DNA of 64,000 nucleotides from Nitrosopumilus sp. (GTDB taxonomy: Archaea; Thermoproteota; Nitrososphaeria; Nitrososphaerales; Nitrosopumilaceae): assembly GCA_965204345.1 (NCBI GenBank), contig OZ241981.1, forward strand, positions 640,001-704,000, in the 5' to 3' direction. The first letter of the stretch is position 1. Each line of letters starts with the position of its first letter. Below, one piece after another: positions 27,135 through 60,223 of the stretch. The notes beneath the pieces are model-generated. The model saw nothing but the letters and a program-made list of their open reading frames with translations, was not told the DNA's origin and did not search any database. The translations under genes were made by a program, and so were the position numbers.

Positions 27135-28079
27135 TTAAAGATTGCCTGCTTTGATGTCTTCAAGACATTTTATGACGTCATCTTTTGATATCGGGACTGG
27201 GTTTGGATCCAAATGCCCTTTATCAGTCATGACAGTGTCTGCAGCTTCTGAAACATCAGCCTTGAGTTCTAATTTATCAAACCCAAGTTTTGTCATTGCC
27301 TCTTTGAATCTATCATAGAAGATTGACTTGTTATGCTTGTGTGCAACGGTAGTACAGGAGGATAACGAATATCCATGAGGTACACCTTCATTTGAGAACA
27401 CGTATGACAATGCATGCCCAAGTGTCGTAGAGCAGTTACCAAAGCCCATTCCAGACAGCATTGATCCGTATGGATAGTTTTCTGGTTTGTCATTGATAAT
27501 TGCATCATACAAAATATCAAATGCCTGCTTACATAGGGTTCTTGTCAAGTCATTACCGAGCTTACTGTCATAACCCTCAGTAGCTTGAGCACATGCATCA
27601 CAGACAGAATTTTTCAAGACCTGTTCTGGAGTCCCATCCATAAAGTATGAGTCAACTACAGCCATGTCTGCTAAAAATTTGTCTTCGCGTAACAGTTTCT
27701 TTTTGCCATCAAATTTCAGAACGCAATATGTAGTCATTTCAGCTCCGGTTCCAAAGGTCGTTGGGATTAGGATTTTTTCTTTTTTCATCTCAGGTGCAGC
27801 ATATTTTACTACATCCATGGAACTTCCACCACCAAGCCCGATCAGGCAGGATGGATCCTTGTCTTTGAATTGTGAAATAACAGTATTGACATCCTCAATG
27901 GATGGCTCTGGCTTTACCTGGTCATACAGCATGTAATCCTGGATACCCATCTTTGCTAACCATTTGTCAGACAATGCCGGTGGAACGGTTGTGACAACTA
28001 GAGCATTTTTTGGATACTCTGTTTGACCAAGTGCATCTTCTCCAAAATTGATAACTTTTGGAATGCGTACTGTTTGCAT
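27135..28079 (-). CDS. Iron-containing alcohol dehydrogenase, probable malonic semialdehyde reductase of the 3HP/4HB cycle
   Basis: GLGGGSSMD, IPTTFGTGAE, GHALS, PHG motifs; substrate assignment rests on recalled similarity to the Nitrosopumilus enzyme. Confidence 0.8.
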   Translation of the reverse strand: MQTVRIPKVINFGEDALGQTEYPKNALVVTTVPPALSDKWLAKMGIQDYMLYDQVKPEPSIEDVNTVISQFKDKDPSCLIGLGGGSSMDVVKYAAPEMKKEKILIPTTFGTGAEMTTYCVLKFDGKKKLLREDKFLADMAVVDSYFMDGTPEQVLKNSVCDACAQATEGYDSKLGNDLTRTLCKQAFDILYDAIINDKPENYPYGSMLSGMGFGNCSTTLGHALSYVFSNEGVPHGYSLSSCTTVAHKHNKSIFYDRFKEAMTKLGFDKLELKADVSEAADTVMTDKGHLDPNPVPISKDDVIKCLEDIKAGNL

Positions 28080-28098
28080 AAGTCAAAGCCATCATTAA

Positions 28099-29409
28099 TT
28101 GTTATTATATCTTGCATTAGTGAGAAACAGCGTGATTATTCAAAATTTTGATGATTTGGCAACAACAGAGAAGAGAAGAGACTGCTTGGAAATTTTAGAG
28201 TCAGGATTGCAAGCGGCAAACCCTGAGAACATTATTCCGAAATTTGTAACCCCAAAAAAAATCAAGGTTGAGGGCAAAACACTTGATATTTCAGGATATT
28301 CAAGCATCTATTCAGTAGCATTTGGAAAGGCAGGGGACACCATGACTAGGGCAGTAAATGCCATAGTTCCAATAAAGAGCGGAATCATAGTAATCCCCAA
28401 AGGCTCAAGATCAAAAATTAGGGGTAAGAAATTTCAGATTTTCAACTCCAGACATCCAAAGCCGGATCAAACCAGCGTCAAAGCAGCTAAAGAGATTATA
28501 AAGTTTGTGCAAAACAAGCGGAGTGATGAATTGGTAATTTTTCTAGTGTCAGGTGGCGGGTCGTCACTTTTGGCACTGCCAGACAGCATTACCTTGGAAG
28601 ACAAGATTCATGCTACAGATGTCCTGCTAAAATCAGGGGCGGTAATCCAAGAAATCAACTGTGTAAGAAAGCATCTCTCAAAGATCAAGGGAGGAAAACT
28701 AGTTGAGAATCTAAAGTGCCATGGAATAAGTCTGGTAATGTCAGATGTTCAAGGGGATGATTTGTCATCTATTGCATCAGGTACAACATACATGGATGAC
28801 ACCACATATTCGGATGCCTTGGAAATTATAGACAGGTACAAGATCAGATGGAAGATGCCTGATGAGGTTCTAGCGCTTTTGGAGGAAGGAAGTAAAAAGG
28901 AGAATCCAAATGCGCCAAAAAAATCAAGAATTGAAAATTACGTTATTGCAAACAATGACAACTGTCTGGAGGCCATGCAAAACAGGGCCAAAGAGAAGGG
29001 ATACACGGTCAGCAGGATGTCACTTTTTGGGGACATTAAAGAGGCAGTGATCAAAGTTCTCAAAGAAATTTCAGAAAACGAAAAGACATGCATAATTTTT
29101 GGAGGGGAAACTACAGTCAGAGTACTTGGAAAGGGAATGGGGGGAAGAAACCAGGAACTGGTTTTGCGGCTGTTAAAAAATACCCAAAAATTAAAAAAAA
29201 TGGTCATTGCATCGGCAGGTACTGATGGAATTGATGGAAATTCTGTTTTTGCAGGAGCAATAACGGAGAATGCAAAAATGGATTTGAGTATAATGAAGGA
29301 ATTTCTCAAAAACAATGACTCGGGAAGGTTTTTTCAAAAGCAAAAGGGAAATATCATAACCAAGCCTACCCACACAAATCTAATGGATATTGGAGTCATT
29401 TTAAGATAA
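28099..29409 (+). CDS. Glycerate 2-kinase (MOFRL/DUF4147 family)
   Basis: AFGKA, SGGGSSL, SDVQGDD, GGETTV, GGRNQE, GTDGIDG, TNLMD. Confidence 0.92.
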   Translation: MLLYLALVRNSVIIQNFDDLATTEKRRDCLEILESGLQAANPENIIPKFVTPKKIKVEGKTLDISGYSSIYSVAFGKAGDTMTRAVNAIVPIKSGIIVIPKGSRSKIRGKKFQIFNSRHPKPDQTSVKAAKEIIKFVQNKRSDELVIFLVSGGGSSLLALPDSITLEDKIHATDVLLKSGAVIQEINCVRKHLSKIKGGKLVENLKCHGISLVMSDVQGDDLSSIASGTTYMDDTTYSDALEIIDRYKIRWKMPDEVLALLEEGSKKENPNAPKKSRIENYVIANNDNCLEAMQNRAKEKGYTVSRMSLFGDIKEAVIKVLKEISENEKTCIIFGGETTVRVLGKGMGGRNQELVLRLLKNTQKLKKMVIASAGTDGIDGNSVFAGAITENAKMDLSIMKEFLKNNDSGRFFQKQKGNIITKPTHTNLMDIGVILR

Positions 29410-29568
29410 ACTATAGAGTTTGAATTCAAAAAGAATCTACTTGCCTGTTTTTTATTTTGCCTTTTGAATATTTTTAGCAACTTTTAGTTTTAGTTTTTAA
29501 ATCCAATAACAGCTATTGTGTATCCTCACGAACTTTTTTTTCAAATCATTAGTCATCACAGATTAGAT

Positions 29569-29726
29569 GGGTTTGATAAATTTTGATCAGTTGAGTGCCG
29601 GAATTTGCCAGTAAATTCTCAGAGATAATTTTCTTAGAGTATCTAATCATCAAAAAAACTCAAAGAAGTGCAATTCCAAGACTTATATTTGTAATTTATG
29701 GCATGAGACACCGGAATTTGCCAGAC
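29569..29726 (-). repeat. Repeat copy A (full length, inverted)
   Basis: Reverse complement matches copies C-I along the whole length. Confidence 0.85.
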
Positions 29727-29811
29727 ATAATAACTTGAAGTGGTGTTGTTTTCACGATCCATTATTCCAAAGAGAGTTGTATTTTTGTATGAAACAGGAA
29801 TCCGATACGCA

Positions 29812-30318
29812 TTATGGGGGATTTATGGTTGCATAGACAAACAAATGGGTATCACCAATTTGCGGTTCCCAAGATGTGGATTCCTCTGGATATACACTCA
29901 TGCTATGACTTATTCTGATAATTCTACATTCAGGAGGTGGTTGGTACGTAGGAGAAAAAGAGGTGTGGGGACGTATGTGACTTATGATCTCACTTTCCAT
30001 GCCAGGATAGTAACCGCAATTACCAGATTTACGTTCAGGTACATCCCATACAAGGATCCCATTATTGGAACCGCCTTCTTTTAACGAGTACGGTGACTTG
30101 TTGAGTACAGTTATCTTGATTGGCTCTCCATGAGAATATACGGCTTTATCGAGGCTTAGACGAACAAAAGAGTTCTCTGCAATATGCGGAGTGTAGTTTG
30201 AATACAAAGTCAAAATCATAGCTTGTGGCAATGTAGGATAATATTGGAATACAAGGACAGTGCCAGCAGAAATAATAATTATTATAACAGCAACTGCTAT
30301 CAGAGTCTTCTTTCTCAT
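29812..30318 (-). CDS. Membrane-anchored hypothetical protein
   Basis: N-terminal TM; LDKAVYSHGEPIKITVLN Ig-like motif. Confidence 0.65.
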   Translation of the reverse strand: MRKKTLIAVAVIIIIISAGTVLVFQYYPTLPQAMILTLYSNYTPHIAENSFVRLSLDKAVYSHGEPIKITVLNKSPYSLKEGGSNNGILVWDVPERKSGNCGYYPGMESEIISHIRPHTSFSPTYQPPPECRIIRISHSMSVYPEESTSWEPQIGDTHLFVYATINPP

Positions 30319-30454
30319 GGTATGATTACCGCATAGGATTTATTATAATTATCCACATCAGATACTGTAACCCAAAAGACATGAGTTACTGAGAGCAGAA
30401 ATATGATTATCAGTAGGTGTATCAAATACATCATTACTTGCAAAAACATACAAG

Positions 30455-30641
30455 CCACATCCAGCTTTTGTATAAACATCAGAATACTGTTCATCAGAAC
30501 CATACAGTTTTGTTGAGGGTCTCTCTATCTACTGCTGAACTAATCAAACCTTCCTTCTGTAATCCCTTTAACATTAAAGGAAATTTTTTTTTCTAATTCA
30601 ACATGAATGAGTTTTACGTCTTCTTCAGAAAGGTCATTCAC
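30455..30641 (-). pseudogene. Doc (death-on-curing)-like toxin remnant
   Basis: Fragments across frames: LSEEDVKLIHVEL / GLQKEGLI / ERPSTKLYGSDEQYSDVYTKAG; catalytic HxFxDGNKR absent. Confidence 0.6.
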
Positions 30642-30824
30642 CTAACACTTGTCTAAAGCTTTAAAGACAATCATATTTTGATCAATAGTTTTACTTATAA
30701 GTTGACTCAGTTCTTTTCTCTCTACTTCACTTCTTCTTTTTCTCTCTACTTTACTTCCTCTTTCTCTGTCAACTCCACTTCCTCTTTTTCTCACTACTCC
30801 ACTTCCTCTTTTTCTCTTAATCAT
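30642..30824 (-). CDS. Putative antitoxin with four 8-aa basic repeats
   Basis: Stop abuts the Doc-like GTG start; RKRGSGVV-type 24-bp repeat x4. Confidence 0.45.
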   Translation of the reverse strand: MIKRKRGSGVVRKRGSGVDRERGSKVERKRRSEVERKELSQLISKTIDQNMIVFKALDKC

Positions 30825-30890
30825 TCAAAACACCTGTAGTATGAATTCCTGCTCATATATTAAAAATATTTGTATTTTATGATAGTCAAG

Positions 30891-30947
30891 GTGCAGTTTC
30901 GAGACTTGCATTTGTGATTTATGGCATGGAATACCAGATTTGCCGAA
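30891..30947 (-). repeat. Repeat copy B (left-end fragment, inverted)
   Basis: TTTGTGATTTATGGCATGGAATACC is the reverse complement of the copy E/I left end. Confidence 0.75.
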
Positions 30948-30971
30948 TTCAAAACAATGTGTAACTACAGT

Positions 30972-32675
30972 TTACGGATCAGATATCCTTCCCATAAACA
31001 AAATTGTACCACTCTCATCATCCTGAATTATAAACAAAAACGGATGATCTGCAATAAATTGTGGAGGTGGAGGAGGTTGACTGTATGGTGTACCAGTAGA
31101 GATAGTTGTTACGGCAGTCGCTTCTGTCCCTTCTTCATTTACGTCTATAAACGTGTCCTGCGCTGCAGCAGTCACGTATAGATTTTTTATAGAAATATCT
31201 GCAATTCCTCCAAGATCGGCATTATCTGAATCAAACACATCTGATATTCCAAGATTCATCAGTGGCCCGTTAAGATCATATCTTTCAGTTATTTGGAACT
31301 TTGGAATTGATACTAGAACTTCTTGTTGATTATACAAGTTCTGTGTCCATTGTCTAATCTGTTCATGTGATATAGAGTCCTCAACCTGTTTTAGGCCATC
31401 TGTATCGTCTGGCAGAATTACCAACATCGATAGCCTGTCGCCCTCATAGGGCATTTTTAGCATTCTAGCATCATCTAATAATCCAAAGTCGAATCTGCCT
31501 TGCACCGTCATAAAATCTACATCTACAGAATCCTCGCTATTCTTCCAAAAGGCGGACTCTGTGGTATCTTCCTCGGGGAACTGTGTTACCCATGTGCCCT
31601 TAAAGTATATGGCGTTGTTGATTACCATTGCAGTAAATTCGTCTACATCCGTTGGAGTGATTATTTTTTCAATCTTGCCGTTTGTGTTATCAGAGGCCCA
31701 CTGGTTTATCTTGTTTATGCCGTCATCTGCATCCAAAAAATCTACCTTTTCTGCGGTAGAGAGATATGTCTCTCGTGCCACAGAGATATAGGAATCATAA
31801 GATTCAAACCAGTCTGCAATCCAAAGTGCGTTTGCAGTATTCAGTTCTATGTGCGGATCATCTCGGTTTATCGAGGATATAAAATGTGACGTAGAGTTCT
31901 GACGCACATCTCTGTCTGGTTCAAATCCAAAGACATCCTGCATTTCTTGTGCAGTGTTTTCTCCGGCACCCTCATACAGTATTGAAAATGCCACATACAT
32001 GCTGACAGGTGAAAAGAATATGTTTTCATGATTGTCTGATATCTGTCTGTAAAAATCAATTGCAAACTTGTTGTTCGTAGATGTAATGCTGGTATTATCA
32101 AGTGGCTGCATCATTGTGATAGTATCCATATCAGTGTAATTTGCCTTGTATCTTTCCATCGCGTCGGCAACTTGTGCTGACGTGAAATTTGAGTGGTTTA
32201 AAATACGTTCTACATCATCCAATGGAAGACGTTTATTAAGAAGCCATTTAATTAAATCGTCATTAACTGTGCCAATCTCATTGACAACTATCTCGCCCAA
32301 AAGTCGCAGATGGTTAGCATATATTTCATCTACTCTTTCTTGCGTCAAAATCTCATCAATTATTTCATCTTTGGGTCTTGGTTCAATACCGAGTCTTTTA
32401 CCTTCTTCAAGTGTAAGATGTTCAGAACTAGAACCCATAGCTACAATAAGGTGATCCAAAAATGTGTATCCCTCATCCATATACTCATATCGGGATAGAG
32501 AATACTCATCAGATATTGCAAAGTTTACACCGCCACTAGGTTCTGCAGGATGAAATCTCAATGCGTCAATTTCGATAAATCCTTCTTTTAGAATTTCTAT
32601 AGTAATCAGCACGGTATAAGTCCTATCGGGCACTGGATCATTTACGACATATCCGACGTTATTATCAAATGGCAC
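30972..32675 (-). CDS. Serpin-domain protein (3' part of a frameshifted gene)
   Basis: NIFFSPVS, NAIYFKGTW, hinge EEGTEATAVT, FIADHPFLFII...ILFMGRISDP. Confidence 0.92.
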   Translation of the reverse strand: MPFDNNVGYVVNDPVPDRTYTVLITIEILKEGFIEIDALRFHPAEPSGGVNFAISDEYSLSRYEYMDEGYTFLDHLIVAMGSSSEHLTLEEGKRLGIEPRPKDEIIDEILTQERVDEIYANHLRLLGEIVVNEIGTVNDDLIKWLLNKRLPLDDVERILNHSNFTSAQVADAMERYKANYTDMDTITMMQPLDNTSITSTNNKFAIDFYRQISDNHENIFFSPVSMYVAFSILYEGAGENTAQEMQDVFGFEPDRDVRQNSTSHFISSINRDDPHIELNTANALWIADWFESYDSYISVARETYLSTAEKVDFLDADDGINKINQWASDNTNGKIEKIITPTDVDEFTAMVINNAIYFKGTWVTQFPEEDTTESAFWKNSEDSVDVDFMTVQGRFDFGLLDDARMLKMPYEGDRLSMLVILPDDTDGLKQVEDSISHEQIRQWTQNLYNQQEVLVSIPKFQITERYDLNGPLMNLGISDVFDSDNADLGGIADISIKNLYVTAAAQDTFIDVNEEGTEATAVTTISTGTPYSQPPPPPQFIADHPFLFIIQDDESGTILFMGRISDP

Positions 32676-32758
32676 AAATACGGTTGGATCATCAGAGCCA
32701 GCATTTGTTACGGCATCATCAAGAAACCGAACTTTGTCATCAGGATTAGAAAATACTT

Positions 32759-33274
32759 TTAGCGTAAATGGTTCATCGTATGGTTAATAGGTATATTATC
32801 AGTATAAACTCCGGTAAAATTCACCAATGCAGTCTGACCCACTTTGGGCCATATTGACAGTTCTGTAGAATAACTGTGTATAAGAGGTAGAAGTGGTTCT
32901 GATGACATTGAAACTTCTTTGTAATCAGCAATAATTTGTTTTTCTTCGTCAGTAAATACATGCGTGTCTGTCTGGCCTGTGATCTTTTCATTTAAAGGCT
33001 CATTGGCTTTGGGGGATGTTTCTGGCGGGTATATCGTGGCATAGCCCCTATCTGCTAATTGCATGGCAGAATCACTAGTTACGCAAACGGGCTTGCCTGC
33101 AGAAGTCACCATCAGAAGCTTGCCATCATTGCACTGAATCATATCTATTGGTATGCCTGCATGATACTGTTCCAGTGGCGAATCTTGGGATGCAGCATGT
33201 GCTGGTACTGCCACTCCCATTATCATCATCACTGTGGCCAAAACCAAAAATCCAGGCATTGCAATTCCAGCCAT
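32759..33274 (-). CDS. N-terminal part of the serpin gene (signal peptide + SPLxQ...C...C domain)
   Basis: Serpin frame stays open upstream to ~32783 and overlaps this ORF's end, so one frameshift joins them. Confidence 0.7.
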   Translation of the reverse strand: MAGIAMPGFLVLATVMMIMGVAVPAHAASQDSPLEQYHAGIPIDMIQCNDGKLLMVTSAGKPVCVTSDSAMQLADRGYATIYPPETSPKANEPLNEKITGQTDTHVFTDEEKQIIADYKEVSMSSEPLLPLIHSYSTELSIWPKVGQTALVNFTGVYTDNIPINHTMNHLR

Positions 33275-33337
33275 AGATAGTGTGAATATGCTTTGTTATT
33301 AAAAATGATCAAAAGAAATTCTGTCAAGTCAGGAGGA

Positions 33338-33490
33338 TTCTGATAAATTTTGTTTCATGCCATAAATCATATATTTAGAAATCTCTGAATTTCACTTTGA
33401 GATTTTTTTGATGATTAGATAATTTAAGATGATTATCTCTTGGCAATTTGTCGTTAAAGTATGGTGATCAATTCATCAAAATTTACCAAT
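33338..33490 (+). repeat. Repeat copy C (full length)
   Basis: TTCTGATAAATTTTG ... CAAAATTTACCAA. Confidence 0.88.
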
Positions 33491-33619
33491 CTTAAATTGA
33501 ACAGTGAAAACTCTATGTCATGTATTCTTAACAGTGCCTTTAAAACAGGCAAATGACACTAAGATTGAACAGTGTGGAAAAAAATGTTCCTTTATTAGCA
33601 AGTTGTAATTATTATTTTT

Positions 33620-33739
33620 ATGGCTGAAAAATCAACCAAAAAAACTCCTCCTAAATCATATTCTGATGTGATGAAAGGAAGTGTCGAGTCGACAGGTCCG
33701 GTCGGTGCAAAACCAAAAAATCCGCCTCCTGAGGAATAA
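33620..33739 (+). CDS. Possible 39-aa Pro/Lys-rich peptide
   Basis: Own translation MAEKSTKKTPPKSYSDVMKGSVESTGPVGAKPKNPPPEE. Confidence 0.35.
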   Translation: MAEKSTKKTPPKSYSDVMKGSVESTGPVGAKPKNPPPEE

Positions 33740-33997
33740 TAGATTTAATTATTTTATGTATGAAATTGACCATTCCTAGTAGACAAGTCTAACTAACTGT
33801 ACCATTTCAAGACGATATGTTTAATTTTCTTTCCACTTGATTGAGCAACCAATTGATGGATCAAAATCTTTTTTTAATTTTTTCTCCAACAATTAATTTT
33901 TCCATGTTGACAAATCATTGTTTTCTCGGTTGCTTGATCTTCTGGTTTCATAGCACTGTCTATTTTTTCATGAAAAACTAGCTGTTTTTGCGGTTAT

Positions 33998-34036
33998 ATT
34001 AAATTCCAGTGATCAGATCATCAAAATTTACCAGAA
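33998..34036 (+). repeat. Repeat copy D (right-end half copy)
   Basis: ATTAAATTCCAGTGATCAGATCATCAAAATTTACCAGAA. Confidence 0.85.
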
Positions 34037-34086
34037 CTGGTCATTGGTTCAAATTAATTAGAAGTACAACATGCAAAAGAATACGT

Positions 34087-34386
34087 TTAGAAACAAGATG
34101 AAATTGTTTTAATTCCTGCCCGGTTTAACTCATCTCTGAAAATTTTATCAGATATGCCTTTCTTCCCCAATCTTATTTTGAAGATTAAGTTAGGATCGAA
34201 ATATTTGCTGTATTTTTGCTTGTCTTTTTTGTAACCATCTGCAATAAGATCTAGTTTTTGTATCTCTGTCTGATAAAAATTCTTTGTATCTCTTTTGGCC
34301 TTTTCGTATCCAAATTTTGCAATCCTTTTCTTTCGCATAAAACTCTCAGATTCTGGAAGAGTAAGATGTGGGAATTTTTCTGCCAT
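34087..34386 (-). pseudogene. Truncated N-terminus of the S8-peptidase partner of the AAA ATPase (IetS-like)
   Basis: Coupled to ATPase stop; N-terminus resembles those of AAA-associated S8 peptidases; ends 50 bp before repeat D with no catalytic domain. Confidence 0.5.
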
Positions 34387-35288
34387 TAATCTTCATTTGA
34401 GATTGTCTTCTTGCGGCGTTTTTGTTCTGAAATTGCCCACATTATATGATCCCGTGAAACAGTCTTGTTGTTATTAATTATGCTTTTCTTAAGTGCATCC
34501 TCACAAATCTGTGCAATGTTTGCAGCAGAAAATCCTTTTGTTCTTCGAGCAAGCTCATCTAGAGTAAAATTATCTTCTCTTCGCAATACTCTTAGATATT
34601 TTCTAAACAGCTGCTTTCTCTTGGAGTTATCAGGCAAGTCAAAGTAGATAATATCATCAAATCTCCTCCAAACAGCCTTGTCTAGCAGGTGCTGATGGTT
34701 AGTTGCAGCCAGAATTATACTGGAGCCTTTGTAATTATCTAGCATCTGTATGAAATTATTTACGACTCTTTTAATTTCTCCATGTTCGTGAGGATCGTCG
34801 CGTTTTTTTCCAACAATATCAAATTCGTCAAAGAGAACAACAAATTTGCCGGTTTCAATGAAATCAAAAATTTTTCTTAGGTTTGTTGCCGTTTCACCAA
34901 GATAGGATGATAAAATAGAATCAAACATGACATACACAAAAGGGTAACCCATAGTACTGCCGATTATTTTTGCGCTAAGTGTTTTTCCCGTTCCAGGAGG
35001 ACCACAAAATAAAATTGTATTTTTTGGTTTCAACCCATATGAAAGTAATTTTTTGGCAGACCTGTTTTCGGTTATTATGTGACCCAGTCTTTCTTTTGTT
35101 TCCTTTGTCACAATCAAATCTTCAAAGTTAGAATACTGTTCATTAACATGCAATAGTGGAAATCCTTTTTCTGTATCTTTAGGGATTTTCAGTATGGAAT
35201 TATCAATAGAGTTCTTGTCTTTAAGAATGCGCAGCTTATGCTCGTTTTGTTCTTTAGCAAGATCATCCAAATTACTCATGGCAAGCAC
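34386..35288 (-). CDS. AAA+ ATPase (IetA-like)
   Basis: GPPGTGKT, SSYLGET, LFDEFD, GEIKRVVN, AATNH..LLDKAVWRRFD. Confidence 0.88.
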   Translation of the reverse strand: MLAMSNLDDLAKEQNEHKLRILKDKNSIDNSILKIPKDTEKGFPLLHVNEQYSNFEDLIVTKETKERLGHIITENRSAKKLLSYGLKPKNTILFCGPPGTGKTLSAKIIGSTMGYPFVYVMFDSILSSYLGETATNLRKIFDFIETGKFVVLFDEFDIVGKKRDDPHEHGEIKRVVNNFIQMLDNYKGSSIILAATNHQHLLDKAVWRRFDDIIYFDLPDNSKRKQLFRKYLRVLRREDNFTLDELARRTKGFSAANIAQICEDALKKSIINNNKTVSRDHIMWAISEQKRRKKTISNED

Positions 35289-35476
35289 AATCCATGTTCA
35301 TATTGTTATATTCGTTTCAATGTTTTAAGAAGTTTAAGATTGGTTTAATGTTTACAAGAGACCTATTTTTTCTCCTTTGAGGATATCAATGCCTCAAAGC
35401 CAAGTAAATCCATGACAAATGTAATTGGTTTTGTAAATGAGAGAAAAAGATGCACAAACTGGATACAGTACATATG

Positions 35477-35629
35477 TTCTGATAAATTTTGGTATTCCAT
35501 GCCATAAATTACAAATCTAAGTCTCTGAACTGCATTTTGGGATTTTTTGATGATTAGATATCTAAGAAAATAATCTCTTGGCAATTTGCTGCTAAATTCC
35601 AGCAATCTGATCATCAGAATTTACCAGAA
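35477..35629 (+). repeat. Repeat copy E (full length)
   Basis: TTCTGATAAATTTTG ... CAGAATTTACCAGAA, 13/15 terminal inverted match. Confidence 0.9.
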
Positions 35630-35737
35630 TCTCATAACCCGTCTTTATATCTGTCATAGGATATGTTTGATTTCTTTAGTTTGTAGGATAATTTCTAGAA
35701 ACCTTGGGTTGCAATGTCATTGATGTTTGATAAAAAT

Positions 35738-35965
35738 TCAATCATTTTGTGACTTGGATTTTATTCTTCTTATTATAACAACCAATAAACAAAACACGGC
35801 TTCTGAAATTAAAAGTAACATAAAATAACCCTCATTTTCATTCCAACAATTTCTAGGGATGTCTGAATAATTAGGGAAAGGATAACACCAAGAGGGCATA
35901 ATGATAAAAAATAGCAGTAAAAAATAAAATACAATTCCTGTAATTATTATACTGAAAAATATCAT
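35738..35965 (-). CDS. Small two-TM protein
   Basis: Two hydrophobic helices with a Cys pair in the loop. Confidence 0.5.
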   Translation of the reverse strand: MIFFSIIITGIVFYFLLLFFIIMPSWCYPFPNYSDIPRNCWNENEGYFMLLLISEAVFCLLVVIIRRIKSKSQND

Positions 35966-35991
35966 AATCCTAAAAAAATAGCAAATAGGAA

Positions 35992-36756
35992 TTAATTAAT
36001 TCCAAGTTCCTCTGCAATACCAAACCATGGACTGAATATCTTAAAGAGCTTATAACAATTACCATATGCATCCGTGAGATGTAAATGAAGAGATCCAGCA
36101 TCAATAATACACGAACTTCCAACGACAGTTCCTAACATGGTAGCAGTGCCATTGCCATGATTTTTGAATATAGGGCCGCCACTATCTCCACGTTGAGATG
36201 GATACGTAGCTGCAATTTGTTCAACAACCACATAATCACCGATGGAAGTGGTAACATTACTATACGTTATGTTACCAATGCCGTTACTATGTCTGGCCGA
36301 TACTTCGACTTCAGTACCACGGGCATAATCACCCCTTCCACCAAATCCAATAACTGAAAGTATACCATTATTGGTTTGAATCTCGTGGATTCGTGGAATT
36401 AATTCTTTATTGGTAATTTCCACCAAAGCAGCATCAGATTTTGTTCGTAAACCCCCTCCAACATCGGAATTCGCCAAAATAGTAGTGGTGCCGATCTCAG
36501 ACAAAACAAAACCTAATGGATCAATATCAAGATCAAGTACACGATGTCCATTGATGGATTTGTTTCTTTTTGCAGCTACTGTTTTGAGAACGCATGACAT
36601 AGCCCCCCACATCATCTCACTTGCTTTATGATAGTCTTTTTCTTTTAGATATTTTTCTGCATTATGACTATAGTGCAAGACCATCCCTGCATATTTGTCT
36701 GGCTCATTATCTGCTGCGTCTATTTGGCAGACATTAGTCATCATCATCTTCCTCAA
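35992..36756 (-). pseudogene. Chimera: PaREP1/HEPN-like N-terminus fused to trypsin-like protease C-terminus
   Basis: AEKYLKEKDYHKASEMMWGA...AAKR..GHR then SDAALVEI...GDSGGPIF; no catalytic His segment. Confidence 0.65.
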
Positions 36757-36961
36757 TTTCTACATCATTATATCCTGTTATTTTACCTGAATTTGCATTA
36801 ACCTTCACTTCTTTGAGTTGTTGACTCAAAAACCCCACATCAAAAACAAGGTGCCATGTTCCATTTTCCATTTCTGATGATTTTAGATTAATTGTGCTAT
36901 TGTGCCCCTCAAGAAATTCTTCTGCTTTTTCTATTGCATCTTCCATGTCGTATTCGGCCAT
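36734..36961 (-). CDS. PepSY-like small acidic protein
   Basis: EDAIEKAEEFL...WHLVFD...EVKVNANSGKI. Confidence 0.7.
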   Translation of the reverse strand: MAEYDMEDAIEKAEEFLEGHNSTINLKSSEMENGTWHLVFDVGFLSQQLKEVKVNANSGKITGYNDVEIEEDDDD

Positions 36962-37094
36962 GGATTAAATGATCAATAGTTGCATTAATTCTTTATCTAG
37001 TTGGAATCTTTTTATGTTTTCATAGCTTTTGCACTGGGAACTTGGAGAGGGTCTTAGCTGATTTCTGAAAAATCGATTGACTGCAAAGATTGGG

Positions 37095-37250
37095 TTCTGG
37101 TAAATTTTGGCCGTCATGCAATAAATCACATATTTAGGAATATCTGAATTGTATTTTTTTGAGATTTATTTGAAGATTAGATATTTTAAGAAAATCATCT
37201 CTTGCAACTTACTATTACATTTCAGTGATCAATTCATCAAAATTTACCAA
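37095..37250 (+). repeat. Repeat copy F (full length)
   Basis: TTCTGGTAAATTTTG ... CAAAATTTACCAA. Confidence 0.9.
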
Positions 37251-37323
37251 CCCCAACTTGAACAGCGTAAAGAATTTGATCTATAATCTGTTATCTTGAC
37301 AGGACCGCACTATTACTCTGAAA

Positions 37324-37713
37324 TTAATATAACCCAACATATTCTACATCAGGTATCTTTTTTGCAATGTCTGAAGCCTGTCGTGAACTAACATTGGGAC
37401 AAGTAAAATCTAAGTCATAATCAGTACGTTCCCCTTTCCCAACATTTAGAGTAAATTGATAAACATTAAGACACCCTGCCAACTGCAATTCTTTTCTAAG
37501 GGCATCAATAACCTCAGTATCAAAATTATTACGTTTTATATGAAATTTGTGTTCATAAGGCACTTCTCCAGGGGTTGGTGATTTGTTTTGTTCTTCAAAA
37601 CTATCTAAGACTAATAGAATTGCAGGAATCGTAAAAGATGCTATCAATAAAACCATAATGAGCGGGGGTATCACATCATAGACCCAGTCTGGTTTGTATA
37701 TCATTCCAAACAC
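37324..37713 (-). CDS. Membrane-anchored hypothetical protein
   Basis: N-terminal TM; sole intact ORF between repeats F and G. Confidence 0.6.
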   Translation of the reverse strand: MFGMIYKPDWVYDVIPPLIMVLLIASFTIPAILLVLDSFEEQNKSPTPGEVPYEHKFHIKRNNFDTEVIDALRKELQLAGCLNVYQFTLNVGKGERTDYDLDFTCPNVSSRQASDIAKKIPDVEYVGLY

Positions 37714-37756
37714 TTGACCATTAAGATTTTCCCAAGCGCTAAGACTTGTAATAACA

Positions 37757-37859
37757 TTCCATTTTCTATTTCTGAAGATTTTAGATTAATTGTGCTATGG
37801 TGTCCCTCAAGAAATTCTTCTGCTTTTTCTATTGCATCTTCCATGTCGTATTCGGCCAT
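37757..37859 (-). pseudogene. Truncated duplicate of the PepSY-like gene 5' half
   Basis: Near-identical to 36859-36961. Confidence 0.8.
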
Positions 37860-37991
37860 GGATTAAATGATCAATAGTTGCATTAATTCTTTATCTAGTT
37901 GGAATCTTTTTATGTTTTCATAGCTTTTGCACTGGGAACTTGAGGGTGTTTTAGCTGATTTCTGAAAATTCGATTGACTTGAAATGTAGGG

Positions 37992-38145
37992 TTCTGGTAA
38001 ATTTTGGCCGTCATGCAATAAATCACAGACTTGGTAGTATCTGAACTGCACTTTGAGTTTTTTTGATGATTAGATTTTTTTAAGAAAATCATCTCTGAGA
38101 ATTTGCTGTTAAATACCAGTGATCAGGTAATCAAAATTTGCCAAA
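37992..38145 (+). repeat. Repeat copy G (full length)
   Basis: TTCTGGTAAATTTTG ... CAAAATTTGCCAAA. Confidence 0.9.
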
Positions 38146-38451
38146 CTCTGTGTGTTGACTGCCAAAAGAAGAAGAGCAAGCATTAGTTTCACCCTTTTAA
38201 TGCAATTTTATACTATGTCATTATCATGTCAGAAGACAAAAAAACTCCACACAAGAATGGTGGTTTGGATACTTTTGGCTGTGGATAATCACGGGCATCA
38301 TTTGCTATGTACTGCACAATGACACAAATCCGCAATGAGTCACCTCATACACTCAAGAGGGTTTCCAATAGGCATGGATAACAATCTGGGTGACACTTGT
38401 GATGATCTCAGGCGATGCGATATCTGACTGGTAGTAGCAGTTCTGTGGTTT

Positions 38452-38491
38452 CTGTTAAACTCTGGTGATTAGATCATCAAAATTTGCCAAA
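38452..38491 (+). repeat. Repeat copy H (right-end half copy)
   Basis: CTGTTAAACTCTGGTGATTAGATCATCAAAATTTGCCAAA. Confidence 0.82.
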
Positions 38492-38632
38492 ACCAACAAT
38501 TCCCAACCTTTAAAAAATAAAAAGTGATATCATCATTACGGTTCCGTTAGACTATTCTAACTATGAGACTCAAAAGAGAGCTCAGGAATCACCAGAACCC
38601 TGTTTTGTTTATTGAATTAGTATATGATTGAA

Positions 38633-39568
38633 TTATTTTGTAACTATCGGCAATGACTTGACAAATGCTTTTCCCAAATGATTTTCAATAATTTTCAATA
38701 CTCCTGCATGAAATGTAATAGTTGTTGCATGATATACAGATAAAACTAAATCTTGGAAAGTTTGATCATCTTCCAAATCCTCTATAACCAGATTGAATAC
38801 ATCCCTCGCTGTATTTCTTTGCACATGTCGTGAGTGACTTTGAAACAAATCATGTTCTGCCATGCTTTTGGAAATAACCTTGATTTCTTCATCAGTTTTT
38901 ATACCTTTTAGCATCCATGACGATAACCAAGTTTTCACCAATGTTTCTGAAAGTTCTCTTGCTCTTTTACAATGTGTGAGTAATCCGGGACTGTATTGTT
39001 CCAATATTGGCATCCATGCACCTAATTTTTCAGGCTCATTTTTAGAAATTGTCTCTGCCTTTTTGAATTCATCCACAATGTCTTGTGCAGGCATCATACG
39101 AACTCCAAATTTCGTTTGAATAAATATTTGCGGATCAATTGGGCCTAATGAAGATTGTTTCCCCATAACAATTCTATTTGATGCACATGCAATCATAGTT
39201 GCGGCAGACATTGCAGCTTGAGGTATAATCACTCTAATATCTGAGAATTTCTCTCTAAGATACAAAATTATTGCTTCGGCTGCTTCAGGCGAACCACCTG
39301 GACTGTGTAAAATTAAATCTAGTTCTTCGCCTTGCAAACAATGAACCGTTTCCATAAATCCTTGTAAATCCTCGTCTGAAATTGAGAGGACTTCTGGATC
39401 TGCATTTGGTACACTTTGAGTCCAATTTGTAGCATAGATAATGGTATTGCGGTTTGTATGATGTTGTAATTTTAAAAGATATTTTCTTCTAATACCATCG
39501 AAATCAGGAGAACCATTGCCAACAATTGATTCTTCGACTTCTTTTATTATACTATCTCAAGTTGACAT
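38633..39568 (-). pseudogene. SDH-family Clp-fold serine protease with TGA at codon 4
   Basis: LILHSPGG, AMSAATMIA, LGPIDPQ; frame open upstream of the listed ORF to ATG 39568 except TGA at 39557-39559. Confidence 0.8.
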
Positions 39569-39580
39569 ATGTTAATGAGC

Positions 39581-39763
39581 CTAATCATATGTATTACTTG
39601 AAGTTGTCGTCTGTCTGTATCTTGTAATTTTATGTTGTGATTTTTGATATTTATGAAGGTGCGCTTGTATGTTTCTGACAGTTTCAACACCTGCTCTTTC
39701 TTTGGCTTTTTGCAGAATCTCTTCAAATTTTTCATCTGTTTCATTCATACTCATTTTAAACAA
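39581..39763 (-). CDS. Small hypothetical protein upstream of the Clp-fold protease
   Basis: 60-aa ORF ending 12 bp before the protease start. Confidence 0.45.
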   Translation of the reverse strand: MFKMSMNETDEKFEEILQKAKERAGVETVRNIQAHLHKYQKSQHKITRYRQTTTSSNTYD

Positions 39764-39863
39764 TTCTCACTCAAAAAATTAGTGTAAAAACCTTTCCAAT
39801 AAAAAACTGAAAAAATGTTGGGTTTTTTAACTCTGATCAAGCAATGTTCTATAAGATTTGGTG

Positions 39864-40022
39864 CTCTGGCGCATTTCGGTGATCTATCCATGCCATAAAT
39901 CACAAATTTAGTAATCTCTGAATTGCATTATGAGATTTTTTGATGACTAGGTAATTTAAGAAAATTATCTCTGAGAATTTGCTGTCAAACGCCAGTGATC
40001 AATTCATCAAAATTTGCCAAAC
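39864..40022 (+). repeat. Repeat copy I (full length, degenerate left end)
   Basis: CCATGCCATAAATCACAAAT ... CATCAAAATTTGCCAAAC. Confidence 0.88.
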
Positions 40023-40601
40023 CCTGTGTGTTGACTGCCAAAAGAAGAAGAGCAAGCATTAGTTTTAGCCCTTTTAATGCAATTTTATACTATGTCATTA
40101 TCATGTCAGAAGACAAAAAAACTCCACACAAGATAATGGTGGTTTGGACACTTTTGGCTGGGGATAGTCCCGAGCATCATTTGCTATGTATTGTACAAGG
40201 ACACAAATCTAGGCTGCAAGGAGTCACCTCATACACTCGATATGGTTTCCAATAGTGACATTGATGGTAATCTACATAGTTTTCATAATAATGCTAGGCG
40301 ATGTGATATCAGACACGTCTGAGTGGTAGTAGCAATTATGCCAGAAAGATTCTCTGGATCATGAATCTTGCAATTATAGAATGATTATTTAGAGAATTCT
40401 AAGGGATTGTTCTAGTCTTAAAAATTGTTCTGGAGTAGTTGATTTATTTGGAAAAGTTATAATTTTATTTTCTTCAGACATAAAATATCCTCTTCAATTA
40501 ATTACATTAGTATTGCTGATACTGGCATCGCCATTTTGAATAAATTCGAGTCTTATTTGTATATGGAATTGTTTGAGTCTACTTCAGGATATTTTACTCC
40601 T

Positions 40602-41048
40602 TCATCCATGACGATAAAGATTTTTACTATTTTTTCTTGCAAGCACAATATTCAGAAAAAGTGAATCCAACAAAGATTGATATGATAGATTTTGAATAAG
40701 AAAAAATTTCATGTTTTGAACGGATTTATAATCTTCTGAGAATCTGTATTCTGTTTTGAATTGCTCAGGATAGATTTCATCAAATGTTCCCATTGTAAAT
40801 TCAATTTCTTCCTTTGATAGTTTTTTCAAAGCCTGTTGAATTTTTGGAGTGGTCACAATTATACATGTCACCCTGATGCAATCTATATTTTTAAATTTCT
40901 CAATGGCAAAACTGCACAGATCAGTATTAAATGGATGCACCATGATTGAAAACCCTATTGCATCATCCTCTAATTTTCTTTCTTTGCATGGCAAGAATTG
41001 ACTGATCATTTTTATGATTCGTTCTTGTAAAACTCCATGCTTGACCAT
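40602..41048 (-). CDS. Hypothetical protein
   Basis: 148-aa ATG ORF. Confidence 0.55.
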   Translation of the reverse strand: MVKHGVLQERIIKMISQFLPCKERKLEDDAIGFSIMVHPFNTDLCSFAIEKFKNIDCIRVTCIIVTTPKIQQALKKLSKEEIEFTMGTFDEIYPEQFKTEYRFSEDYKSVQNMKFFLIQNLSYQSLLDSLFLNIVLARKNSKNLYRHG

Positions 41049-41231
41049 GAAATGTTTTTATCAAGCTTACATGTATTGCATTATATGAAAAAGTTAAAAC
41101 TCAGATCTTTCACTGTTGGTGACGGGCTGGTTGTAACTGAAAATGAATCTCATGCCATTCTTCGCCAGATTTTTAACAAGTATCAATAACACCGCTTTTT
41201 CTGAAACATTACCATATGCTTAATTTAGCGA

Positions 41232-41453
41232 TCATATAATCCCCTTCTTGGTTTCCAAAGAGTTATTGCGGAAGAGTGAAAGCATGTACAGGCATTTGTT
41301 GCTGTGCGTGTCATCAATCCTGTCAAATATAATCTTGTATGCCCCAAAATAAAATTCGTCCCTAGGCACGGCATCACGAATCATCTTTCCAAGAACCGTT
41401 CTCTTGCAGTCTATCTTGTCACATATTTTTGCATATGCTTCCTTGCGATTCAT
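41232..41453 (-). CDS. Small hypothetical protein
   Basis: 73-aa ATG ORF. Confidence 0.45.
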   Translation of the reverse strand: MNRKEAYAKICDKIDCKRTVLGKMIRDAVPRDEFYFGAYKIIFDRIDDTHSNKCLYMLSLFRNNSLETKKGII

Positions 41454-41609
41454 TACAACACATCAAAGAAAGTTTTTGCTTTAAAGGATATTTTATGGTG
41501 GTGATGGTGGTGACAGGCAAAAGTTCCCAAAGATTCAGAAACACATTACCTGAACAGGCAGAAAAGCATGGAAATAATTGTGATCTAATGGATACCAGTA
41601 CACGATAAT

Positions 41610-42104
41610 TTAGACCAATGTTAGTTGTGCAGCACTAAGAAAAATTACAAAAATAAATGCAAGTAAAAAGAACAGACCAACAACTAAGATCCACACAGAA
41701 TAAGACATCTTCTTTAAACGGCCTTCATGTTTTGAAATAACATAACTTTGAGATATGTTGTACTGTCTAATCAATGACCACATGATGTCTTTTTCTTTAT
41801 CCTTGACATCAATGTCCCCTTCTAAATCAATTCTTATCTCTTTGAGGCTTGCCGCAGGAGTTACAAATCTAACAAGTATCAAAGTAGATACAATAACAGA
41901 ACATGAAGAGGCTGCCAGTAGCAAAAATGTAAAAACATCTAGTGAATCTTTTATTATCCCAATTCCAATAAAAATTACCGATAATAGCAATCCGTTTAAT
42001 TGTAAAAAATTATGGGATTTGTGATTTAGTTCAGTCCAACTAGTCAGTTGGCGTGTATATTCTGCTTTGACTTCTTCTAAAAGAATCTCTTCGCTAATCT
42101 TCAT
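41610..42104 (-). CDS. Three-TM membrane protein, weakly PycTM/DUF5706-like topology
   Basis: Helix-TM-TM-loop-helix-TM layout; start at MKISEE. Confidence 0.55.
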   Translation of the reverse strand: MKISEEILLEEVKAEYTRQLTSWTELNHKSHNFLQLNGLLLSVIFIGIGIIKDSLDVFTFLLLAASSCSVIVSTLILVRFVTPAASLKEIRIDLEGDIDVKDKEKDIMWSLIRQYNISQSYVISKHEGRLKKMSYSVWILVVGLFFLLAFIFVIFLSAAQLTLV

Positions 42105-42610
42105 CTTTTTTCTTCTTTTCTGTGTGGTGAACGTCTTTAAAGACTCGTTTTGTACCAATTATTATGCCCTTTGCAGGTCTTTCATCGTCTTCGGACAATA
42201 ATAATTAAAAGTCAAACTGTTATAAAAAAGTAAACAACATTATAGCTTCCAGTTTTTACGCGATAACCGATATGAATTAAACATGAACCAGTAGCAACAT
42301 ATCAATCTCTTCTGTATGTCCATATCCACCTTTCTCCCTATAAATGACATACAGCAATACAAGCCCCATTACAAAATACAATAGTCTTAGCGGCGCGACG
42401 TCAATCTAATCCTCAGGAGATGTCCCAACTGTGACGTGGCCCGTGACGTTTGTGGCACTTGCAATTCCGCCTCATCGTTTACTGCCATAATGTCTGCACT
42501 CCCAGTATCATCCAAGAATACGACACATCAGCTACCGCATGTGATCATGGTATGGTTTGCCATTGACATACAGCTGTGAGACACTTAAGAATACGTGAAT
42601 GGGGTTTTCA

Positions 42611-42653
42611 CTGTTAAATTCCAGTGATCAGCTCATCAGAATTTGCCAAACCC
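42611..42653 (+). repeat. Repeat copy J (right-end half copy; island boundary)
   Basis: CTGTTAAATTCCAGTGATCAGCTCATCAGAATTTGCCAAACCC. Confidence 0.85.
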
Positions 42654-42754
42654 GATATGCTTGTCAGTAGGGGATTTGAGAGAATCTTCAAAAATCAACA
42701 TGTTACTTTGCATGCTGTTTTTATAGATAAGAGTGCCACTTTAACCAGATTACC

Positions 42755-42994
42755 GTGCTAGAAAAACAGTTCAATCCAGACGTGCTATACAACAGAATAG
42801 TGCACTTTTACATGGACAAAAAAGGGTATGCAAAAGACAGGGCAAATGAAATTGCACAGTCAGTTGTGCAAAAGGAGGCACAGCGTAGAATTTGTAAAAA
42901 TGAAAAATGCAGACATTTTGCACACGATCACATAAGAAATGCCGAGACATGCCTGGTGCAAGACTGCAAATGTATGAAATTTACTACAAAATAA
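42755..42994 (+). CDS. Small Cys/His zinc-binding protein
   Basis: CKNEKCRH..DH...CLVQDCKC. Confidence 0.7.
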   Translation: MLEKQFNPDVLYNRIVHFYMDKKGYAKDRANEIAQSVVQKEAQRRICKNEKCRHFAHDHIRNAETCLVQDCKCMKFTTK

Positions 42995-43970
42995 AATCAT
43001 CCAAAGAATCTTTCAGTAATGGCTGAGCATTAATCCCCCGTTCTCTCAGGTCTTCTGCAAACTCATCTACAAACCCGTGAATTGTGTAAACTTGTTCTGC
43101 ACCGGATTGTACCACCACGTCAATTAGCTCATTATAGTCACAATGATCACTTAGGGGAATAGAGTAATCGGTGCGTCGTCCAAAAGAAAATTTGGATGAC
43201 TGTGCCCAGCCGCTAAATCCTATTGTGACTGCGCCATATCTTGATTTCATATCCTGCACAAATTTATTTTTGCTAGATAGCATGGGGGCCACCATAATCC
43301 AGGGTTTTTTCTCAAGCAGGCCATTTTTTTCAGCCTCTGCATAGCCAATTCCATCACGCAGTGACACGCCAAGTTTCTGATGAAGCAGATTCATATCCTT
43401 TACAGAGTCATGCAAATACAATGGTCCCCAGTGACCAAAAAACTGAGTAATCGTTTGGGCTTTTCCAAGCTGATATCCCATTAAAATTACAGGTATGCCC
43501 CTCCCATAAAGCTCAGAAATTAGCTCATTGACTTTTTTTAGAGTGTCATCAAGTTTGGGAAATACAAATTCAGGCAGTCCAAACGTGCATTCAGTGATGA
43601 GGGTTTTGCATTTAGGGATTTTTGCACCTTTCAGAAAACCCCTGTCCCGGGTACAGATATCGCCAGTATAGAAAATATCATCAAAAAAAAGTCCCTTTGC
43701 GCCTAGTATGTGTCCGCTGTCAATAAGAGAGAAGGCATCCAAAGACTCGACATGGTTTTCCATTTTAAATCCACGAAGACTAGCTATTTGATTGGTTTCA
43801 ATGGATGACAGGATAGTTCCACCATTTCTTGAGGGCAGATGATCAGTGTGGGCATGTGAGACAAAGTTAATCGTGGATGAATCACTGTTTTTTGGATCCA
43901 AATGAACCTGTTTTTGGCCAGCTCTGCACAGGATTCCGTTTTTTGTCATCCTGACTTTTCTAGGCAACAA
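42984..43970 (-). CDS. MBL-fold (beta-CASP-like) nuclease
   Basis: SHAHTDH, SGHILGA, YTGD, ECTFG, LSDHCD. Confidence 0.88.
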   Translation of the reverse strand: MLPRKVRMTKNGILCRAGQKQVHLDPKNSDSSTINFVSHAHTDHLPSRNGGTILSSIETNQIASLRGFKMENHVESLDAFSLIDSGHILGAKGLFFDDIFYTGDICTRDRGFLKGAKIPKCKTLITECTFGLPEFVFPKLDDTLKKVNELISELYGRGIPVILMGYQLGKAQTITQFFGHWGPLYLHDSVKDMNLLHQKLGVSLRDGIGYAEAEKNGLLEKKPWIMVAPMLSSKNKFVQDMKSRYGAVTIGFSGWAQSSKFSFGRRTDYSIPLSDHCDYNELIDVVVQSGAEQVYTIHGFVDEFAEDLRERGINAQPLLKDSLDDFIL

Positions 43971-44025
43971 AAGTGAAAATAATTAGATTTGATATAAATT
44001 GCAGGTTTGATTTAGTGTTGACTAG

Positions 44026-59504: not shown

Positions 59505-59630
59505 AACATCCTCCTGTCAATCACATAGTACATTCTTGTATAGAATTATGATGTTTAATTCATGCTGTTTTTAGTTAAATTATTGTACATTTTGTAAATT
59601 CAATAATTCCTTATTTGGAACTTTTTACTC

Positions 59631-60137
59631 TATTGTACGAAAATTATGTCCGCCTAAGCTCAAGTTTGAGGCAAGGGATTATTATCGCATATATCGATCA
59701 CAAATAATGAAGAGAACCAGACTGGAAAGAACCAGACTGGAAAGAACCATACCAGATACATCATACGGCAGCGTCAGAAGGGCACGGGTGCAACAGCAGT
59801 TCTGGCCCAGACCATGCAGGTCAGCGCAAGGCACATCAGACGCATATTGGTGACCTACCGCAAGACCGGAACAATACACCCCCACCGCCCGCAGACCAAT
59901 GGCAAGATTGAGAGATTCTTGAAGACACTTGAGGGTGAGCTTGTACACTTTAAGACGATCTGAGAGTTCATGGATTTACAACGAGGATAGGCTGCATTTT
60001 TCTCTGGACATAGAGAACTGCCAATACTCTTGATGGCATTTAAGGCCAAAAAGGTTCCTGATGCAATCAAAAAAAGCAACCAAAAATGGATGGAGGCAGA
60101 CATGAATGACTAGCAGACATGATTTTCATATAATACA
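59631..60137 (+). mobile_element. Internally deleted IS481-family element
   Basis: 23-bp TIRs (19/23); + strand remnants VSARHIRRILVTYRKTG joined to HRPQTNGKIERFLKTL and YNEDRLHFSL. Confidence 0.8.
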
Positions 60138-60223
60138 AGAGTGTAATTGCTCCTTACCATACTTTAAGAGTATTTCAACAAGTAGATTTTTTAACCAAAT
60201 TCATATTTTCAGAGGGATAAATA

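Follow-up and report, generated by a model that had tools for sequence, protein, structure and literature searches.

Composite elements in which two MITEs (transposable elements of the miniature inverted-repeat type) enclose a segment of DNA, the transposase being supplied in trans, are known in bacteria (as set out in parts of PMC13367494 and PMC3934969). In the IS6 family of insertion sequences (ISs), which is characterized by GG tips, by the motifs cTGTt and caaa, by 8-bp target-site duplications (TSDs) and by long clades carrying a Zn finger, arrays and translocatable units may be devoid of TSDs (PMC7986276). Sponge-associated ammonia-oxidising archaea are rich in serpins and transposases (passages of PMC6790972 and PMC7848895); the terms 'MITE' and 'IS6' have no occurrence in the main text of the former paper, and no description of a MITE family in Thaumarchaeota, or in this group, was found in the literature searched. 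The subject of the present study is a 64-kb stretch of DNA from a sponge-associated Nitrosopumilus (hereafter the window; C1:640001–704000, C1 being one of the nine contigs of the 2.12-Mb assembly analysed, G000), in which ten copies of a ~155-bp repeat with terminal inverted repeats (TIRs) separate the genes of an island at 29569–42653. The island is a strain-variable insertion at an intergenic hotspot between two core genes, the hotspot being independent of the repeat; the repeat is an old, orphan MITE-like family, and the island is best read as a mosaic built by it, the integron analogy being unsupported. As to the way in which this mosaic was assembled, the evidence leans, with some reserve, towards the past action in trans of a DDE transposase of the IS6/IS240 type, together with recombination between copies.

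All ten copies, which had been pointed out in an earlier reading of this DNA made without database searches (the sequence-only reading), were recovered within a few bases by repeat finding, MAFFT alignment and profile search. The six full copies align over ~160 columns with a mean column identity of 77%, and the profile built from them matches the 64-kb window exactly ten times (six full and four partial copies), always inside 29571–42651 and nowhere else in the window, in agreement with the same reading, which had noticed no copy in the core blocks. The element is 150–165 bp long and non-coding, being overlain by short overlapping frames only; its termini are inverted repeats of ~20 nt (GGTTCTGGTAAATTTTGGTG... 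/ ...CAAAATTTACCAGAACC), beginning GGTTCTGG. A third, inner TIR-like arm faces the outer arm within the final ~45 nt, forming a hairpin, and the 3' partial copies are therefore palindromic mini forms rather than random stumps. The terminal stem is predicted in four of the five copies folded; apart from it, the predicted folds vary from copy to copy.

Evidence that the repeat delimits blocks of cargo comes from natural populations. Island DNA is present in sponge-metagenome runs from several studies. Logan contigs were mapped to 28000–44000 for three DNA runs (X5, X6 and X8, from three studies) and one RNA run (X13). A 2,294-nt contig of X8 covers 28363–29567 and then continues at 37114–38177; the same 29567-to-37114 join is found in X5, at a depth of 243. 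Over the unique parts of 29602–37077, depth in X5 is 9–20, or ~14, versus ~190–340, or ~200–250, elsewhere, and 0–0.7 in X8; in X6 depth is even, with every bin of the 7.5-kb stretch covered (13–115). Joins and depth drop therefore indicate one allele without these 7.5 kb. On the left the break coincides with the outer end of the inverted 29569 copy, on the right with the 5' TIR of the copy at 37094, and the 24 letters at the join read as the 5' TIR of the repeat. A second variant, of 3.1 kb, is defined by a 30928-to-34025 join, at depth 33.8 in X6 and, on the minor long allele, at depth 14.3 in X5; the serpin block is missing from it, from the terminus of a partial inverted copy to the 3' TIR of a mini copy. 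The sequence-only reading had proposed a search for cargo swaps breaking at the repeat, and among conspecifics cargo gain or loss does break at repeat termini in both variants. Many other repeat-to-repeat joints, with sides of 24–52 letters, were treated as paralogous cross-mapping and left unused; a 26-nt anchor of the left spacer had no match in the metagenome contigs. In X13, small identical contigs lie at 37657–37848, 38804–38986, 39422–39667 and 41958–42185; they mark presence in an RNA library, not transcription.

Termini of the repeat also bound a unit that is duplicated elsewhere. The serpin unit (30953–33337), comprising the serpin gene and a 171-aa open reading frame (ORF), is multi-copy in the genome according to BLAST, and its homology to the paralogous loci begins at 30910–30963 and ends at 33441–33489, that is, at or within the bounding repeats. 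Repeat matches abut the paralogous units at C1:1680913–1682770, 1971775–1973552, 164440–165798, 1772911–1774258, 1737817–1739054 and 1840425–1841679, and on one side that at C1:345912–347119. Within the unit, the first ~181 codons of the serpin ORF and the 171-aa WING-49 ORF make up a module (32132–33309) recurring at ~8 loci, where it adjoins very large, internally repetitive regions (e.g., C1:1730690–1739054 and 1759160–1774256); by its looks, several surface-protein operons have this 5' module in common.

The location of all these boundaries bears on an explanation that dispenses with any transposase: the copies would be decayed MITE remnants persisting wherever insertions do no harm, no transposase would ever have moved the cargo, and the flux at the hotspot would be due to integrative elements and to homologous or short-homology recombination. 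Such a scenario is possible, if rather doubtful. Of the two copies enclosing the 7.5-kb variant, one is inverted and the other direct, so that recombination between whole copies would invert the intervening DNA, not delete it; the join of this variant falls within TIRs of ~20 nt that agree in only ~11 of 14 core bases, a poor substrate for homologous recombination; and the ends of both variants, like those of the serpin paralogues, coincide with termini instead of being placed arbitrarily within the 155 bp. The copy at 37992–38146 speaks for it: the left flank and first ~35 nt match the region of the copy at 37094 (93–100% identity), and the right part and flank match the region of the copy at 39864 (87–100%), so that this copy is a recombinant, with the crossover inside the element.

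The layout of the island and its borders, in window coordinates, is as follows.

28099–29409, + strand: left core gene, glycerate-kinase-like (DUF4147 and MOFRL; Pfam); congener homology stops at its stop codon.
29410–29568: residual spacer, kept in the long and short conspecific alleles, unalignable to congener spacers.
29571–29726, − strand: full repeat, inverted; on the left, the 7.5-kb presence/absence variant breaks at its outer terminus.
29812–30503, − strand: cargo, 168-aa and 62-aa ORFs of no family; a paralogue of the former (83% identity) lies at C1:301878–302361.
30886–30952, − strand: partial repeat (5' part, model positions 6–67, profile match to 30944); the left break of the 3.1-kb variant falls at its terminus, which adjoins the serpin unit.
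30953–33337, − strand: serpin unit, with the 567-aa serpin (30972–32675) and the 171-aa ORF with a WING-49 domain (32759–33274).
33338–33491, + strand: full repeat, 64 nt upstream of the start of the 171-aa ORF.
33988–34035, + strand: mini repeat (3' hairpin only), at which the 3.1-kb variant breaks on the right.
34087–35288, − strand: cargo, 99-aa ORF and 300-aa AAA ATPase (Pfam).
35476–35628, + strand: full repeat (alignment and profile).
35738–36961, − strand: cargo, 75-aa ORF, 254-aa ORF (weak trypsin/PaREP1) and 75-aa PepSY ORF (Pfam).
37094–37253, + strand: full repeat; on the right, the 7.5-kb variant breaks at its 5' TIR.
37324–37713, − strand: cargo, 129-aa ORF of no family (Pfam, NCBIfam).
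37757–38371, + strand: recombinant unit containing the full repeat 37992–38146 (flank comparison).
38449–38491, + strand: mini repeat (3' hairpin only; profile).
38633–39744, − strand: cargo, 240-aa SDH/ClpP-like serine protease and 65-aa ORF (Pfam).
39864–40022, + strand: full repeat (alignment and profile).
40602–42158, − strand: cargo, 148-, 73- and 182-aa ORFs of no family (Pfam, NCBIfam).
42607–42651, + strand: mini repeat; its outer terminus is ~17 nt from the point where congener homology resumes (42670–42672).
42755–43970: right core genes, a conserved 79-aa ORF (+) and a 328-aa RMMBL/beta-CASP-like gene (−, 42984–43970).

The Pfam scan comprised 20 ORFs, 17 of the island and three flanking core genes. 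The serpin is recognized with an E-value of 1.7e-116 and carries an N-terminal extension of 200 aa; the trypsin/PaREP1 match of the 254-aa ORF is weak and below the cut-offs. In agreement with the sequence-only reading, which had seen no integrase or transposase in the island, neither was found there, whether among its 17 scanned ORFs or by genome-wide domain searches. The enrichment in toxin–antitoxin functions claimed by the same reading was not confirmed, no family of this kind in Pfam or NCBIfam being matched by the ten unannotated ORFs (nine small ones of the island and the flanking 79-aa ORF). Some smaller features may be recorded. Four tandem 24-nt units (30714–30817) lie within a small minus-strand ORF (30642–30824). 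Directly after two repeat copies, at 33491–33510 and 37254–37271, a short motif (…TTGAACAG…) is found, which is the end of a unit carrying 450-aa IS240-type transposases (C1:286268–287620 and others); at these points the ends of different elements therefore abut. Outside the island, at 59626–60145, there are two adjoining fragments of a ~1.05-kb rve-type IS, ~7 full copies of which are present elsewhere in the genome.

The insertion site varies among congeners. Distances between the flanking core genes were computed from coordinates for the 21 congeners having both genes on one contig: in 11 of them the genes are 284–618 bp apart (~440 bp in the closest ones), and in the other 10 they are separated by 1.4–20.7 kb, the value here being 13.6 kb. 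Congener DNA is homologous up to 29409/29410 and again from 42756 onwards (from 42670–42672 in two relatives); congener divergence is considerable (~78% identity even within genes), and the intergenic DNA is too diverged for an empty-site comparison. Next to the right border, the ~110 nt upstream of the 79-aa ORF (window 42654–42755) are conserved and coding-looking in congeners, and are here largely replaced or diverged. At the hotspot, seven stretches from relatives (six genomes) contain no punctuating repeat comparable to the one studied here, and their cargo is unrelated, including TFIIB, TPR and fn3/HYR proteins and an IS1595-type transposase. A 570-aa tyrosine recombinase (L014:1622–3334) lies at the border of the 20.7-kb insertion which the congener G009 carries at the same hotspot; this suggests that integrative elements also use it, as the transposase-free explanation would have it.

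In the whole genome the profile has 91 matches (E<0.01; 31 full, 27 hairpin-only, 12 with the 5' part only, 18 5'-truncated and 3 other), 63 on the plus and 28 on the minus strand. The island is their densest cluster, with 10 matches in 13.1 kb versus 0.55 expected from the genome-wide density, and the next-densest window of this size beyond it holds five. The remaining 81 copies lie outside the island, mostly single and intergenic; density per 100 kb is 6.9 between 0 and 0.71 Mb, 0.87 between 0.71 and 1.63 Mb, and 7.1 between 1.63 and 2.04 Mb. An even scatter of copies with TSDs, as in an ordinary MITE, had been named by the sequence-only reading as an outcome that would speak against its interpretation; the copies are indeed found genome-wide, but they are unevenly spread and devoid of TSDs. 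Of the two interpretations it had offered, a MITE-driven cassette hotspot served in trans fits the 91 dispersed matches, while an integron-analogous array is unsupported, 81 of the 91 copies lying outside it, no tyrosine recombinase adjoining it and the hotspot itself being variable in 10 of 21 congeners without the repeat there.

The integron comparison nevertheless deserves to be spelled out. If the repeat were an attC-like site and a recombinase encoded elsewhere moved the cassettes, one would understand that eight of the ten island copies point the same way, that the modules contain 0–3 genes, that cargo indels occur at the repeats, that TSDs are missing, and that the terminal hairpin has an asymmetric mismatch between its arms, conserved in G000 and in the congeners G158 and G002. 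IS1111-type elements are known to target attC sites, and in G158 an IS110-family IS targets the repeat (see below). Besides the many solitary copies, however, the two leftmost copies of the island are inverted, copies are found both upstream and downstream of genes, no Rfam family is matched in 28000–44000 at E<=1, and no tyrosine recombinase gene lies in or beside the island, the three PF00589 matches of this genome (C1:234142, 1199069, which is degraded, and 1882979) being all distant from it. Such a system is, in our opinion, barely credible. Tyrosine recombinases were accordingly set aside as local actors, as were TnpB-type proteins (PF07282), which have no match in this genome.

In the explanation to which we incline, the repeat is a non-autonomous element dispersed in the flexible parts of the genome and patchy in a few congeners. 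Its copies have piled up in the hotspot, where they now bound blocks of cargo; blocks bounded by termini behave as composite units, similar to pseudo-compound transposons, which are duplicated elsewhere along with the repeats and whose gain or loss among conspecific populations takes place through joins within the TIRs. The agent of these joins is inferred: a DDE transposase would have produced them by acting in trans on pairs of TIRs, and homologous or short-homology recombination between copies would add further rearrangement. The best candidates for the enzyme may be the Zn-finger transposases of the IS6/IS240 type (PF13610), of which this genome has nine loci, five of them with intact frames of 377–450 aa and Zn-finger N-termini (C1:271015–272148, 286268–287620, 289907–291259, 332454–333800 and 1027507–1028652). 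A second MITE family of the same genome (~325 bp, six copies and two variants) has the ~29-nt TIRs of an IS6-type IS resident here, which is found at C1:~1061230–1062345 and 1027507–1028652 (a 381-aa transposase and a deleted derivative); the family has the GGTTCTG tip in common with the repeat studied here, and contains a nested piece of it.

Traces of the repeat in other genomes are few. BLAST retrieves weak fragments in 2 of 40 relatives, and terminal matches occur in 2 of 150 congeners, G002 and G158, the latter having a diverged full copy by profile search; the terminus pattern, with <=3 mismatches, has 40 occurrences in G158 and 39 in G002, versus 0–1 in the control. Among ~186,000 species genomes the exact terminus pattern occurs at seven loci of four Nitrosopumilus assemblies and in one isolated match in a metagenome-assembled genome of Planctomycetota; the exact internal motif pair of the repeat has no match in species-representative genomes. 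In G158 a 5.4-kb unit (L063:3254–8684) is flanked by two inverted full copies and carries a C5-methyltransferase-like ORF (a name based solely on sequence motifs) as well as a 635-aa ORF and the gene for a Zn-finger IS240-type transposase of 540 aa. In G158 this gene adjoins an end of the repeat with its 3' end, and in G002 a remnant of that transposase occupies the corresponding position; the shared arrangement is suggestive of an IS6-type link, not proof of it.

A number of observations weigh against a transposase of this type as the author of the mosaic. TSDs are not discernible: 8-nt matches flank one of the 31 full copies (0.10 in shuffled pairs) and 4-nt matches eight of them (7.6 in shuffled pairs), values for k=6–9 ranging from 0 to 2 and remaining near the shuffled-pair control. 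The copies are old, with a mean pairwise identity of 0.73 between full copies (465 pairs), and the only seven pairs at >=0.948 identity all share flanking DNA and are thus segmental duplicates; recent transposition is therefore not demonstrated. The population variants consist of assembled contigs, not reads, and each may be a gain or a loss. The TIR itself has the GG tip, but CTGGT or CTGAT where the IS6 motif has cTGTt, followed by TAAAT where caaa is due; the second MITE family fits the IS6 motif better. Finally, a search of this genome for a transposase gene enclosed by the termini of the repeat itself gave none, and no transposase-bearing unit with such termini was found in G158, in G002 or at eight further loci from other assemblies, which hold only MITE forms of ~170 bp.

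Two apparent partners in G158 belong to the same negative balance. A 328-aa DDE_Tnp_1 gene seemingly bounded by repeat termini was rejected as an IS5-like IS inserted into the repeat: it is 1,076 bp long, has TIRs of its own and 9-bp TSDs, and exists in four identical copies (L045/L050, L046, L052), one of which sits in the centre of a 47-nt mini repeat; in the genome analysed here no DDE_Tnp_1 domain was detected. A 371-aa DEDD transposase lying between two repeat termini was likewise rejected as a partner. It belongs to an IS110-family IS with nine intact and four partial copies, and in all seven copies compared (L064, L067, L069, L071, L073, L075, L077) the same point of the repeat TIR arm is occupied; the body of the IS ends inside the arm every time, and the IS thus targets the repeat. 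The only IS110-type gene of G000 is a 54-aa remnant (C1:367344–367505). A cognate transposase whose ends match is missing from the assembly, so that the family has probably become a fossil here and the flux of today may be recombinational. The age of the copies and the failure to find a cognate enzyme are also what one would expect had no transposase been involved at all, and so is the fact that 71 of the 91 copies have at least one flank in common with another copy, as segmental duplication predicts.

The relation of the repeat to genes is a further point to be set against the preferred explanation. ORFs of at least 90 aa cover 83% of C1, yet the 30 full copies on this contig all lie clear of them, and the 5' end of the repeat faces a gene start in 21 of the 30, which are not independent because flanks are shared; this orientation bias could instead indicate a selected regulatory role. 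A REP/BIME-like or regulatory palindrome, acting in transcription, termination or mRNA stability and owing its spread to gene conversion or to a Y1 enzyme of the RAYT type, would account for the strictly intergenic location, for the 47-nt palindromic minis and for the lack of TSDs. We regard this as very unlikely: Y1 transposases (PF01797) have no match in G000 or G002, being present only in G158, and the predicted folds differ among copies except for the terminal stem.

To the DDE-transposase reading a bolder one may be added, which we consider unlikely though worth stating: the repeat would be a portable recombination joint, beside the resident copies of which a Zn-finger IS6/IS240-type transposase (or another recombinase), acting in trans on TIR or hairpin, would insert and excise circles of repeat plus cargo, building a TSD-less, integron-like array that is still active in sponge-associated populations. 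If true, this would be an archaeal analogue of the IS26 translocatable units that derives from a non-autonomous element and arrays host-interaction genes. How such genes multiply and vary among strains of sponge archaea has no prior description, and the island makes a concrete vehicle visible: repeat-bounded modules, one with a serpin, in which natural populations differ precisely at the ends of the repeats. The family is also amenable to study as an orphan MITE devoid of TSDs and provides, as a by-product, an archaeal IS110-family element that uses a repeat TIR as its insertion site.

Compared with known systems, the repeat resembles the REP/BIME/REPIN elements associated with RAYT in being a short intergenic palindrome without TSDs that is targeted by an IS110-family element, IS110 relatives being known to target REP elements; it differs from them in that this genome has no Y1/RAYT gene, in the small number of copies (only 91) and in the 155-bp full units with an unrelated interior. 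With integron arrays the island shares short gene modules placed between repeats, mostly in one orientation, and an imperfect palindromic site; unlike them, it has no adjacent integrase, its sites are dispersed genome-wide and lie on either side of genes, and the architecture is that of a transposon with TIRs. Arrays of repeats separated by cargo, often without flanking duplications, and GG tips are reminiscent of IS6/IS26 arrays, pseudo-compound transposons and translocatable units, and the Zn-finger IS240-type transposases of this genome have the sizes of the long clades (parts of PMC7986276); in contrast to these, no transposase is encoded by the repeat, agreement of its TIR with the motif is only partial, the 8-bp TSD is absent and no IS6-type gene with the exact termini was found. 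From the MITE-bounded composite transposons of bacteria the island differs in having no TSDs, no transposase found and copies diverged to 73% identity, as well as in its archaeal host and in a cargo of serpin, protease and ATPase genes instead of resistance genes; what it has in common with them, be they TIME-COMPs, integron mobilization units or the 439-bp MITE pairs of Acinetobacter, is that a pair of short, non-coding elements with TIRs brackets the cargo as a unit.

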